Source: Xenococcaceae cyanobacterium (GTDB lineage Bacteria > Cyanobacteriota > Cyanobacteriia > Cyanobacteriales > JBFRWF01). Taken from it: a stretch of 44,427 bases of DNA. The position numbers and the translations under genes are program-made. The first letter of the stretch is position 1. Each line of letters starts with the position of its first letter. The notes under the pieces are model-generated. The model did no database searches. It was not told the DNA's origin and saw only the letters and a list, made by a program, of their open reading frames with translations. Positions 7,222-8,916 of the stretch are shown piece after piece. The DNA lies in assembly GCA_051439465.1 (NCBI GenBank), contig JBFRWF010000102.1, positions 1 to 44,427 on the forward strand, given 5' to 3'.

Positions 7222-7564
7222 TAATTATAATATCGAGCAGAATTTAGTTGTAGGGTGGGCATTTTCTGGGATGATTTTTGGGACAAATAATTTCACCATA
7301 AACAGAAAATGCCCACCTTGTTAGCACTAGATTGGTGGGCATTACTGATTAAAATATCTGCAAAAGGCATCAAGATTGGTAGCAATGCCCACCCTACGAA
7401 GCTTTCATGTTTAATTATAATATCGAGCAGAATTTAGTTGTAGGGTGGGTATTTTCTGGGATGATTTTTGGGACAAATAATTTCACCATAAACAGAAAAT
7501 GCCCACCTTGTTAGCACTAGATTGGTGGGCATTGCTGATTAAAATATCTGTAAAAGGCATCAAT
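7222..7564. repeat. Tandem direct repeat, period 180 bp. Copy 1 is 7222-7401. Copy 2 is 7402-7564 (3'-truncated). A 29-bp partial third copy lies at 7660-7688. Each unit has nested inverted repeats built on GTAGGGTGGGCAT / ATGCCCACCCTAC
   Basis: The two units are near-identical (a few SNPs). Each begins ctttcatgtttaattataatatcgagcag (contains TATAAT). Each has arms gtagggtgggcatttt...aaaatgcccacc...ggtgggcatt...aatgcccaccctac, which can form alternative long hairpins. It lies in the convergent intergenic gap between mvp and the C5-MTase. Confidence 0.85.
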
Positions 7565-7662
7565 TTACTAACATCTCAGCCAAAAAAGAAGACTGGGTTA
7601 TTTTGTCATAGTCTAAACTTCAGTTATTAGTGTTTGCTCACACAGATATTATAAGCTATCTT

Positions 7663-8916
7663 TCATTTTTTATTATAATATCGAGCAGCTTGCGACCTAT
7701 TAAAATGAAGTAATTTTTCATCTCCTAGCTGCTTTATCCCTGTAGGTTTGACTGGTTTCACCCCGAGAGAATTTAGTATTTCCCTAGCAACTGCTTTCCC
7801 TAAAAGTGGGGGGACAGAATTTCCGACTTGCCGAAATCCGTGCCATTTGGTAACATGAAATCTAAACCAATCGGGATAGGAGTGTAGCCGCGCTGCTTCC
7901 CGCACAGTAATACAACGCGGTCTTTCTGGATGAATCGGTCTTGGAGAAGTGTAAGCACCGCGATTAGTATCTGTTCCCGCCCTGAGAGTGTTGCATAACC
8001 CTTCGGTAGATAGCCGATAAAATCGACTTGTTTCCTCTCTTTTTCCCGGCTCTGTATGAGAAAATCTTTGAATAGATTGAGGAGTATGTTTTGTTCGCTT
8101 ACTTGAGGTGAGCATACTATAATTGTAATAGCGATCGTAGGAGTAATCATCCTCAAAAGAGTAAAGACCGCGCATTTGTCCAGCATAATAACTTGGGTTT
8201 CCATACTCTGTTATTACCCAGTCTCTTTCCAGTAGTTCTGGGTAATTCTCAACTTCCGGTAGGTCGCCAATTGCTTCCGAAACTGTCGGAGTTATAGGAA
8301 GGGTTAAGCTGTCAGTACTGTTTAAATCTGGTTGAGTCAGAGGTTGGGGATATTTGGGTAAGTTAAGACCTTCTCTACATCCGAGCAGAAATAACCTTTC
8401 CCGGTTCTGAGGGACTCCATAATAAGCAGCATTAAGGACTTGATAGTTCTCCTCGACTTCATAACCGTTGGCTCTAAAAGAGCTGATTATTTCTTTAAGA
8501 AACTGCTGATGTTTTCCGATGGCGATTCCTGGGACATTCTCCATCACAAAGAACTTAGGTTGTAGCTCCAATGCCAAGCGCATGAAGTGAAAGACAAGGG
8601 AATTCAGAGGATCGTCGAGGTGGCGTTTTCCCATCAGGGAAAAGCCCTGACAAGGTGGACCGCCAAAGACAACATCAATCTTGCGATCGCCAATTAAAGA
8701 CAAGTTCCTAATTTCTTCCCCTGTCGTATCAGTAACACTCCTGCACAAAATAGACCAGAAGGGAAAGTTAAACTCATGAGTAGCACAGTGGATCGGATCG
8801 AGTTCCACCGCAGCCAGCACGTTAAACCCTGCTTGTTCAAAGCCGAGAGTCATTCCGCCTGCGCCAGCAAATAAATCTACAGCGATTGGTCTTTTCTTGC
8901 TTTTCCCTCTAGCCAT
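7663..8916 (-). CDS. dcm: DNA (cytosine-5)-methyltransferase. Solitary: no adjacent restriction endonuclease
   Basis: Canonical C5-MTase motifs are present: I (DLFAGAGGMTLGF), IV (GGPPCQGFS), VI (ENV), VIII (QNRERLFLLG), X (GNSVPPLL). The last 9 codons (AARYYNKK) are encoded by a partial copy of the 180-bp repeat head. Confidence 0.9.
   Translation of the reverse strand: MARGKSKKRPIAVDLFAGAGGMTLGFEQAGFNVLAAVELDPIHCATHEFNFPFWSILCRSVTDTTGEEIRNLSLIGDRKIDVVFGGPPCQGFSLMGKRHLDDPLNSLVFHFMRLALELQPKFFVMENVPGIAIGKHQQFLKEIISSFRANGYEVEENYQVLNAAYYGVPQNRERLFLLGCREGLNLPKYPQPLTQPDLNSTDSLTLPITPTVSEAIGDLPEVENYPELLERDWVITEYGNPSYYAGQMRGLYSFEDDYSYDRYYNYSMLTSSKRTKHTPQSIQRFSHTEPGKREETSRFYRLSTEGLCNTLRAGTDTNRGAYTSPRPIHPERPRCITVREAARLHSYPDWFRFHVTKWHGFRQVGNSVPPLLGKAVAREILNSLGVKPVKPTGIKQLGDEKLLHFNRSQAARYYNKK

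Follow-up and report, generated by a model that had tools for sequence, protein, structure and literature searches.

A probable cluster of GTAG-tagged REP dimers, duplicated in tandem with copies of a methyltransferase gene end, beside a cyanobacterial mvp gene

Introduction

REPs are small palindromic, probably mobile DNA elements present in many bacteria. The GTAG-tagged REPs and the RAYT transposases are reportedly also the subject of work by Nunvar (2010) and Ton-Hoang (2012).

Families of GTAG-tagged REPs were described in Proteobacteria, Cyanobacteria and Planctomycetes. They occur mainly as head-to-head dimers, mostly downstream of coding regions, their loops measure 2-27 nt in the described families, and dimers reiterated in tandem with flanking DNA form REP clusters (Di Nocera et al. 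2013, PMC3733652). This class was tied to RAYTs, a group of Y1/HUH transposases within the IS200/IS605 superfamily (Di Nocera et al. 2013, PMC3733652; Charnavets et al. 2015, PMC4690160), and RAYT-associated REPs starting with GTAGGGTGGG were reported (Charnavets et al. 2015, PMC4690160). GTAG-tagged REPs arranged in head-to-head dimers are known, with RAYT transposases, as REPINs or BIMEs (Bertels and Rainey 2011, PMC3116915).

The DNA analyzed here is a 44,427-nt stretch from a Xenococcaceae cyanobacterium (contig JBFRWF010000102.1; hereafter, the window), in which a tandem repeat lies beside a gene for a major vault protein homologue (mvp). An earlier note, made from the sequence alone, offered two ideas about this repeat: tandem small ncRNA genes comparable to vault RNA genes, or REP/PATE-like palindromes tied to an IS200/IS605-type system. 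The second idea was essentially right, because the repeat is built on a GTAG-tagged head-to-head REP dimer, a class linked to RAYTs. The main value of the present analysis is therefore a correction: what looked like a candidate vault-RNA locus beside a bacterial mvp gene is very probably a REP cluster between convergent genes, duplicated in tandem with a copy of the methyltransferase gene end. Since this cluster has no special tie to mvp, it is not to be pursued as an MVP partner RNA.

Results

Structure of the tandem array

Tandem Repeats Finder reported an array at 7212-7563 with a period of 190, 1.9 copies, 98% matches and a score of 683, and in a direct-repeat search the segments 7212-7373 and 7402-7563 were found to be 98% identical at a spacing of 190. 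The earlier note had placed 180-bp units at 7222-7401 and 7402-7564. The tandem repeat was real and far above chance, but its period was 190, it started at 7212, and unit 2 ended at 7563. The two units differed at 3 positions. Each was composed of a 29-bp copy of the methyltransferase 3' end and a head-to-head dimer of GTAG-tagged REP hairpins; the full 190-bp segment comprised 26 nt of the methyltransferase CDS end (stop codon included) with 3 nt more, then a 9-nt linker, followed by the REP dimer and 4 nt (Table 1).

The 29-nt head was found three times (exactly at 7212 and 7402, and with 2 mismatches at 7660), where chance predicted no occurrence. The last of these is the 29-bp partial third copy at 7660-7688 that had been noticed before, and it does overlap the last methyltransferase codons (AARYYNKK*), with the stop at 7663-7665. 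In the direction of the methyltransferase gene, the array runs from the real gene end through the partial dimer, a gene-end copy and the intact dimer to another gene-end copy. Segment X matched only itself in blastn, and neither the window nor the fetched loci contained a second copy of it. The array site is extragenic, with the stop codons of mvp and of the convergent methyltransferase gene on either side.

Table 1. Features of the REP array, its flanking genes and the second REP cluster (positions in the window).
Feature	Position	Strand	Description
mvp, major vault protein homologue	4478-7177	+	convergent with the methyltransferase gene; Pfam Vault, Vault_2/3/4, MVP_shoulder
Unit 1	7212-7401		190 bp, complete
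Head H1	7212-7240	-	pseudo-copy of the final 26 nt of the C5-methyltransferase CDS including the stop, plus 3 nt; reads ..AARYYN*; exact 29-mer match, 30-nt family D2
Intact REP dimer	7250-7397	none	inverted repeats I3, I5, I11, I16; folds; same layout in at least 120 loci
Left REP, intact dimer	GTAG 7250-7253; arms 7254-7268 / 7303-7317		15-bp stem
Spacer, intact dimer	7318-7333		16 nt
Right REP, intact dimer	arms 7334-7346 / 7381-7393; CTAC 7394-7397		13-bp stem, 1 mismatch
Unit 2	7402-7563		162 nt; final 28 nt of the unit missing; 98% identical to unit 1
Head H2	7402-7430	-	identical to H1
Second REP dimer, partial	7440-7563	none	direct-repeat family D1; inverted repeats I6, I8; fold z = -2.5; sequence reading
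Left REP, second dimer	GTAG 7440-7443; arms 7444-7458 / 7493-7507		complete; one C>T at 7450
Right REP, second dimer	5' arm 7524-7536 and part of loop		3' arm and CTAC tag missing
Segment X	7564-7659	none	unique, 96 bp; in place of the last 28 nt of unit 2
Head H3	7660-7688	-	real methyltransferase 3' end (..AARYYNKK*, stop 7663-7665); differs from H1/H2 at 2 positions
C5 cytosine DNA methyltransferase gene	7663-8916	-	417 aa; Pfam PF00145, E = 1.6e-69; source of the head sequence
Second REP cluster	10144-10309	none	mixed head-to-head pair, 2.7 kb from the array
First REP, second cluster	10145-10174; GTAG 10145-10148		GTAG-GGTGCGTTA-acggagtg-TAACGCACC
Second member, second cluster	10236-10308; CTAC 10305-10308		long hairpin GTtt-GGTGGGCAT...TTGCCCACC-CTAC

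The layout of the dimer is GTAG-GGTGGGCAT...ATGCCCACC, a 16-nt spacer and GGTGGGCAT...ATGCCCACC-CTAC, with the tags pointing outward. Four copies of a 13-mer in alternating orientation had been claimed for each unit; the outer copies are indeed full 13-mers, but the inner copies are only the 9-mer GGTGGGCAT. Full GTAGGGTGGGCAT was present at outer positions only, namely 7250 (+), 7385-7397 (-) and, with 1 mismatch, 7440 (+). The 9-mer was matched 7 times in the window against 0.32 expected.

The unit folded into a pair of neighboring hairpins, one with a 15-bp and one with a 13-bp stem. In RNA form it reached -59.4 kcal/mol (z = -4.96) on the plus strand and -55.8 kcal/mol (z = -5.24) on the minus strand, and as single-stranded DNA it gave z-scores of -5.1 and -6.1. 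Folding was strong on both strands in either form. In the REP loops of the array, 34 nt were unpaired and 42-46 nt separated the 9-nt cores. Elsewhere, among the matches listed from the genome scan described below, whose search pattern limited the inner length to 70 nt or less, the median REP loop was 10 nt.

Other readings of these features were rejected. The ends of the array do not fit GTTRRRY and no cassettes are present, unlike in attC/integron arrays. A type I toxin encoded by the 42-43-aa ORFs 7309-7437 and 7499-7630 is unlikely, since the ATG opens the REP arm ATGCCCACC and the reading frame crosses REP arms and a head copy.

Direction of copying of the methyltransferase gene end

Homologues of the methyltransferase with 65-75% identity were found across cyanobacteria, and a C-terminal 'SQAARYYN' (SQAA.YY) was conserved among them. 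The nearest homologues with available context (L121 and L122) had neither REPs nor mvp, and L121 contained the orthologous gene-end nucleotides and no repeat. The earlier note had proposed that the repeat supplied and remodeled the C-terminus of the methyltransferase; these comparisons indicate the reverse direction. Judged from sequence, the array holds copies of the methyltransferase gene end and is not its donor, because AARYYN is conserved in the methyltransferase homologues.

An 8-10-nt match, ACTAAATT(CT), was also observed between the junction beside the head copies and positions 7768-7777 inside the methyltransferase gene. Its p value in a shuffle test was ~0.02, judged after the fact, and the copied gene end might once have been longer.

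Occurrence of the REP dimer in other genomes

A total of 185,579 species genomes were scanned with the pattern GTAGGGTGGGCA-N40-70-TGCCCACCCTAC. At least 120 loci with the same 12-nt tag and stem and the same dimer layout were detected, against a chance expectation of ~0.1 match (our own estimate, not one computed by a tool). Among the matches listed, the carriers were Bradyrhizobium, Rhodopseudomonas, other Proteobacteria, Desulfobacterota, Planctomycetota and ~12 cyanobacteria, and several genomes contributed more than one locus. Both inner arms were found in 100 of the 125 matches listed, which gives the order GTAG-stem-loop-stem, spacer, stem-loop-stem-CTAC. In Bradyrhizobium frederickii (L109), two 227-bp units were found, each joining the final ~105 bp of a gene to a REP dimer, and in Moorena (L071) the dimers formed a tandem pair. 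A metagenome scan with the subfamily-specific loop pattern GGTGGGCATTNNCTGGRATGAT returned 4 matches, all attributable to chance and lacking the partner arm. A full-text literature search for the REP sequence gave, beyond PMC4690160, unrelated matches, mostly primer or G-quadruplex studies.

The array resembles REPINs/BIMEs in that GTAG stands directly 5' of a G-rich palindromic stem, the REPs form an inverted pair with the tags outside, and the dimer is extragenic, downstream of convergent genes, and tandemly reiterated with flanking DNA. Moreover, the identical 12-nt tag and stem is present in Bradyrhizobium, Rhodopseudomonas, other Proteobacteria, Planctomycetota and Cyanobacteria. It differs in its loops, with 34 nt unpaired versus the 2-27 nt described, and in that the flanking DNA copied is the end of a coding sequence. 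The Bradyrhizobium form likely belongs to the numbered family GTAG-14 and the cyanobacterial forms to GTAG-12/15/16, as assigned by inference and not by consensus comparison.

A second REP cluster and the search for RAYT genes

The 44-kb contig contained 2 GTAG-tagged REP loci. The second one, flanked on one side by the 3' end of a TPR gene and on the other by the 5' end of an Exo_endo_phos gene, had been missed by the earlier note (GTAG hairpin 10145-10174, arms 10236-10308). Its GTAG-GGTGCGTTA...TAACGCACC REP matched REPs arranged head-to-head around RAYT genes in Lusitaniella (L129) and Microcystis (L132), and the same REP type with one compensated base-pair change was found in RAYT flanks of Kovacikia, Gloeocapsa, Nostoc and Geitlerinemataceae. 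RAYTs are common in cyanobacteria (2680 homologues), and the REPs flanking them have the form GTAG-G[GA]TGCGTTA, like the REP at 10145. Cyanobacterial REPtrons, that is, a RAYT with flanking REPs (Lusitaniella coriacea, Microcystis and Kovacikia minuta pA, L128), have a tag and stem as in the window REP at 10145-10174, which is paired head-to-head with a GGTGGGCAT hairpin. However, there is no RAYT on the contig, and the stem of the 190-bp array is GGTGGGCAT; its REPs have only GTAGGGTG in common with RAYT-flanking REPs.

No RAYT was detected in the window, either by Pfam among all ORFs of at least 100 aa or by a local RAYT HMM among six-frame ORFs. In the 120 REP loci listed, tblastn and a local HMM built from a published alignment revealed only a 60-aa fragment (L030), which was unrecognized by Pfam. 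No REP of the GGTGGGCA type was found to flank a RAYT gene; the one type seen beside RAYTs was the sister GGTGCGTTA/GATGCGTTA. RAYT pseudogenes on Methylomonas plasmids had no flanking GGTGGGCA REPs either.

Discussion

Possible origin of the array

The core of the array would be equivalent to a REPIN/BIME, each REP combining the tag and the GGTGGGCAT stem with a long loop. Such REPs are non-autonomous DNA elements, presumably recognized as single-stranded hairpins and cleaved at the GTAG tag, or close to it, by a RAYT, which may be encoded elsewhere in the genome as a single-copy Y1/HUH transposase. IS200/IS605 PATEs are similar in that the presumed enzyme belongs to the same Y1 superfamily and single-stranded hairpins are recognized. 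However, in PATEs the subterminal hairpins kept from one particular insertion sequence are asymmetric between left and right, whereas the ends of the array are symmetric GTAG-tagged REPs, and neither a TnpA nor a TnpB gene is present in the window.

At this locus, a 190-bp segment was reiterated in tandem, perhaps through slipped replication or illegitimate recombination at the hairpins, or else through processing by a RAYT. In the dimer nearest the methyltransferase gene, a loss of 28 nt and a gain of 96 unrelated nt would have followed. The two convergent transcripts might also carry stable 3'-UTR hairpins that impede 3' exonucleases and read-through; since no canonical intrinsic terminator was found at the array, this role can only be supposed.

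Several observations weigh against reading the region as a REP cluster: there is no RAYT in the window and none with flanks of the GGTGGGCA type, the loops are unusually long, a single simple duplication does not suffice for the arrangement with three heads, and no canonical intrinsic terminator was found.

Alternative explanations

According to the first idea of the earlier note, the units would be independent small ncRNA genes, with the TATAAT of each head driving transcription and with a functional link to MVP as an analogue of vault RNA. The strong unit folds, the adjacent mvp gene and the TATAAT itself speak for this, and the array does resemble eukaryotic vault RNA genes in that these are short and can be tandem; the likeness ends there, without a match in sequence or structure, MVP co-occurrence elsewhere or promoter evidence. 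The head reproduces codons of the methyltransferase gene, and its TATAAT, formerly taken as a promoter element, is TAT-TAT-AAT (Tyr-Tyr-Asn) of the methyltransferase read on the other strand. A promoter scan gave no promoter-like site at the head copies of the array; the sole match on the minus strand (7703-7675) overlaps with the true end of the gene. Rfam returned nothing for the array at gathering thresholds, and relaxing the cutoff to E <= 1 added nothing but noise; the metagenome scan yielded no related sequences for a covariation test of the unit fold. Furthermore, at least 120 loci of several phyla carry the REP that makes up the palindromic core, and tblastn with the MVP of the window detected MVP in none of the 120 loci listed. 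No specific link between the repeat and mvp was found, mvp being merely a neighbor, and the vault-RNA analogy is hardly credible.

A classical MITE with 13-bp terminal inverted repeats, derived by deletion from a DDE-type insertion sequence like the cyanobacterial Nezha elements, could be suspected from the outer 14-nt inverted repeat at 7250 and 7397 and from the related element at 10236-10308; MITEs are likewise small, non-coding, dispersed and hairpin-forming, with inverted termini. This explanation is nevertheless very unlikely, because the array has no target-site duplication (the flanks ..aatttagtt / GTAG and CTAC / gaagcttt share no direct repeat), the supposed terminal repeats are the GTAG tag and stem of a REP family common to several phyla and not insertion-sequence ends, and no DDE transposase is present in the window; the enzyme presumed to mobilize the array is Y1/HUH, whereas that of MITEs is a DDE transposase. 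Direct repeats of a gene 3' end are also typical of integrative elements, so the heads might be remnant attachment sites of an element that targeted the methyltransferase 3' end, integrated repeatedly and then decayed. Synteny with L121 indeed stops at the methyltransferase stop codon, downstream of which there is a sigma factor in L121 versus mvp here, but this says little because that homologue is only 74% identical. Just 161 and 229 bp separate the heads, no integrase or recombinase is nearby, and in Bradyrhizobium frederickii the same pattern of gene end and REP dimer, where the gene-end copy measures 105 bp, exists without an integrative element. Such an origin is thus highly improbable. 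The contig comes from a metagenome-assembled genome, which raises the question of an assembly artefact. However, short-read assemblers tend to collapse tandem repeats and not to create them, the units differ at 3 positions, unit 2 has its own junction with X, and similar arrays exist in isolate genomes (L109, L071), so there is next to no likelihood that the array is artificial.

Implications

A tandemly duplicated REP cluster is thus the preferred reading, and it suggests that growth of such a cluster can take along a copy of a gene 3' end, as here and in Bradyrhizobium, which is a small example of REPs reshaping gene termini and intergenic regions. A stronger claim would be that REP clusters grow by a specific RAYT-dependent or hairpin-triggered process that co-duplicates the adjacent gene 3' end. 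It draws on the common layout of gene end and REP dimer, with the same tag and stem, here and in L109, and appears rather unlikely; if true, it would imply the repeated creation of spare gene ends, which could remodel protein C-termini.

The GTAG-GGTGGGCA tag and stem is common to distant phyla, and its cyanobacterial versions can carry very long loops. The long-loop GGTGGGCAT hairpins of cyanobacteria possibly represent a distinct REPIN subclass with extra sequence in the loops.

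Structure of the repeat array

The repeat array is situated between the convergent genes of a major vault protein (MVP) homologue (mvp) and a C5 cytosine methyltransferase. A single array at 7212-7563 (period 190, 1.9 copies, 98% matches) was reported by Tandem Repeats Finder, and the same register was obtained in a direct-repeat search of the window. These searches confirmed the tandem repeat described in the earlier note, whose unit length of 180 and start at 7222 were each wrong by ten. Unit 2 (7402-7563) ends without the final 28 nt of the unit and is directly followed by a 96-bp filler, of which no second copy was found in the window or in the fetched loci. 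The partial third copy that had been noted beyond it was also present. Coordinates are listed in the table.

Features of the repeat array, its flanking genes and the second REP cluster
Feature	Position	Strand	Remarks
Major vault protein homologue	4478-7177	+	Pfam Vault repeats and MVP shoulder domain
Outer 14-nt inverted repeat GTAGGGTGGGCATT	7250 and 7397
Hairpin A	arms 7254-7268 / 7303-7317
Hairpin B	arms 7334-7346 / 7381-7393
Unique 96-bp stretch	7564-7659		directly after unit 2
Third head copy (29 nt)	7660-7688		two mismatches
C5 cytosine methyltransferase	7663-8916	-	PF00145, E = 1.6e-69
Second REP cluster, mixed head-to-head pair	10144-10309		intergenic, downstream of TPR gene and upstream of Exo_endo_phos gene
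Classical REP GTAG-GGTGCGTTA-acggagtg-TAACGCACC	10145-10174		first member of second cluster
Long hairpin GTtt-GGTGGGCAT...TTGCCCACC-CTAC	10236-10308		second member of second cluster

Each unit contains two adjacent hairpins. Folding was far above that of shuffled sequence on both strands, both for RNA (z about -5) and for single-stranded DNA (z = -5.1 and -6.1). The 9-mer GGTGGGCAT occurred 7 times in the window versus 0.32 expected. Two ORFs of 42-43 aa (7309-7437 and 7499-7630), which take their ATG from the REP arm ATGCCCACC and extend through REP arms, are probably spurious.

Identity of the palindromes

The core of the unit was found to be GTAG-GGTGGGCAT-(loop)-ATGCCCACC, a 16-nt spacer, and GGTGGGCAT-(loop)-ATGCCCACC-CTAC. 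It consists of two head-to-head repetitive extragenic palindromes (REPs) with the GTAG tag on the outer side of each. The pattern GTAGGGTGGGCA-N40-70-TGCCCACCCTAC was scanned for in 185,579 genomes, one per species, and at least 120 loci were found, about 0.1 match being expected by chance according to our own estimate. The listed loci came from Bradyrhizobium, Rhodopseudomonas and other alpha-, beta- and gammaproteobacteria, from Desulfobacterota, from Planctomycetota, including anammox bacteria, and from about a dozen cyanobacteria (Moorena, Crocosphaera, Brasilonema, Stigonema, Nostocaceae, Geitlerinema, Oscillatoriales and Chamaesiphon). Among the matches listed, several genomes contributed more than one locus. 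Both inner arms were found in 100 of the 125 listed matches; therefore, the layout is identical to that in the window.

GTAG-tagged REP families are known from Proteobacteria, Cyanobacteria and Planctomycetes; they are located mostly downstream of coding regions, predominantly as head-to-head dimers whose members are usually 20-100 bp apart, and are tied to REP-associated tyrosine transposases (RAYTs) of the IS200/IS605 group (Di Nocera et al. 2013, PMC3733652). RAYT-associated REPs beginning with GTAGGGTGGG or GTAGGGTG were described in Haemophilus parasuis, Cardiobacterium hominis and Sulfurovum (Charnavets et al. 2015, PMC4690160). The proposal that the units are REP/PATE-like palindromes of an IS200/IS605-type system was thus essentially right, since they form a GTAG-tagged REP dimer of a class linked to RAYTs in the literature. 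The array is a further example of an already known kind of element, the REP cluster; it is unusual in its long loops and in the coding end that was duplicated with it.

A second REP cluster and its link to RAYTs

In the second cluster, the loop of the long hairpin begins (GGTGGGCATTGCCTGGAATGAT) similarly to that of hairpin A (GGTGGGCATTTTCTGGGATGAT). Cyanobacterial RAYT genes were located by tblastn of E. coli RayT against plasmids, and a subsequent protein search yielded 2680 cyanobacterial-type homologues, many of them annotated as REP-associated tyrosine transposase. All seven RAYT loci whose flanks were read are bordered on each side by GTAG-tagged REPs, whose tags point outward. The stem GGTGCGTTA / TAACGCACC flanks RAYT genes in Lusitaniella coriacea and Microcystis and is the same as that of the REP at 10145; therefore, the organism has the REP type that belongs to the REP-RAYT system of cyanobacteria. 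The stem GATGCGTTA / TAACGCATC, which flanks RAYT genes in Kovacikia, Gloeocapsa, Nostoc and Geitlerinemataceae, differs from it by one compensated base-pair change. The RAYT-type REP and the GGTGGGCAT type are physically paired in the second cluster. No RAYT flanked by GGTGGGCA-type REPs was found among the loci with flanks read, and no RAYT was detected in the window when every ORF of 100 aa or more was scanned with Pfam and six-frame ORFs with a local HMM.

At two Geitlerinemataceae RAYT loci (L130 and L131, about 1400-1500), the flanking REP has its 3' half (catcaagcgaagcaacgcat) repeated 2-3 times in tandem just upstream of the RAYT gene, which is another small case of local REP amplification.

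Origin of the head sequence

The minus strand of the head reads GCT GCT CGA TAT TAT AAT with a stop a few codons on, and the methyltransferase C-terminus is ...SQAARYYNKK*. The SQAA.YY motif was conserved among the best 120 methyltransferase homologues, beyond which their tails varied from 0 to more than 30 residues; at least a dozen terminate, like the protein in the window, no more than 4 residues past it. Of the homologues with genomic context, the closest (L121, 74% identity) has the orthologous nucleotides caagctgctgactactataac, and neither repeat nor REP was found downstream of its gene. Therefore, the head is native coding sequence, and the direction is opposite to the suggested remodelling of the methyltransferase 3' end by the repeat. 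The heads that begin at 7212 and 7402 are pseudo-copies of this gene end. The TATAAT of the head, which had hinted at a promoter, is the reverse strand of Tyr-Tyr-Asn codons. Consensus scans called no promoter at the head copies of the array and no intrinsic terminator in the region; the sole minus-strand promoter match (7703-7675) overlaps the real methyltransferase gene end.

The C5 methyltransferase family to which this protein belongs is conserved, at 65-75% identity, across cyanobacteria. On the L121 contig (ena:ERZ28782776), the Exo_endo_phos-methyltransferase pair is syntenic with the window and is followed by a sigma-70 factor gene, not mvp. The REP cluster therefore stands at the end of synteny, which carries little weight because the two genomes are too distant.

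Origin of the array and its position next to mvp

In the direction of the methyltransferase gene, the order is the real gene end (head at 7660-7688), 96 unrelated nt, a partial REP dimer, the head at 7402-7430, an intact dimer, the head at 7212-7240, 34 nt and the mvp stop. The outer arm and tag have been lost from the dimer nearest the methyltransferase gene. Tandem Repeats Finder detected tandem reiteration of REP dimers at 2 of the 120 listed loci. In Bradyrhizobium frederickii (L109, NZ_SPQS01000007.1, 3242-3703), a 227-bp unit is present twice, joined at a short microhomology. Within each unit, the final ~105 bp of the gene lying upstream are separated by a 27-bp spacer from a GTAG-GGTGGGCA REP dimer. 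This architecture, a gene end plus REP dimer in tandem, matches that of the window. In Moorena producens 3L (L071), two dimers are in tandem with a 74-bp period. Thus, the array in the window is an ordinary REP cluster; the flank duplicated along with it happens to be the end of a coding sequence.

One simple duplication cannot account for three heads. The 10-mer AGAATTTAGT at the head-REP junction of both units (7239-7248 and 7429-7438) recurs inside the methyltransferase gene at 7768-7777, about 100 nt upstream of the stop codon. This match is weak (shuffle p about 0.02, assessed post hoc, for the 8 nt outside the head); as a weak hint, it suggests that the copied gene end might originally have been longer and later shortened by internal deletion.

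The other idea in the earlier note, that the units are tandem vault-RNA-like ncRNA genes, was unsupported: no MVP homologue was encoded among the 120 listed REP-dimer loci, and no Rfam match at gathering thresholds was obtained across the whole window. Rfam at E <= 1 gave only sub-threshold noise in the array region, and no relatives suitable for a covariation test were recovered. The position next to mvp is most plausibly coincidental, because REPs settle between convergent genes.

Enterobacterial REPs provide an analogy for a role as 3'-UTR hairpins. By this analogy, the hairpins of the array would be transcribed within the 3' UTRs of mvp and the methyltransferase gene, where they could shield both transcripts against 3' exonucleases and could damp convergent read-through. 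As DNA, they would presumably be acted on by a RAYT whose gene lies elsewhere in the genome.

Other features of the window

A module resembling a fragment of a plasmid or mobile element lies at 34899-40845. Its components are a 1349-aa ORF with primase/helicase-like domains (DUF3854, D5_N and Pox_D5), a KfrA_N protein (40330-40845) and, at 38965-40299, a C5 methyltransferase fused to a ParB N-terminal domain. Inside the 1349-aa ORF, at 37779-38511, there are long tracts of the heptamers CAGTTAC / GGTAACT. Perfect or near-perfect octamer arrays were found at 1322-1377 (GGGGAGAC, 7 copies) and 33793-33859 (AGAGGGGG, 8.4 copies), and the cyanobacterial HIP1 palindrome GCGATCGC occurs in 40 copies across the 44-kb window.
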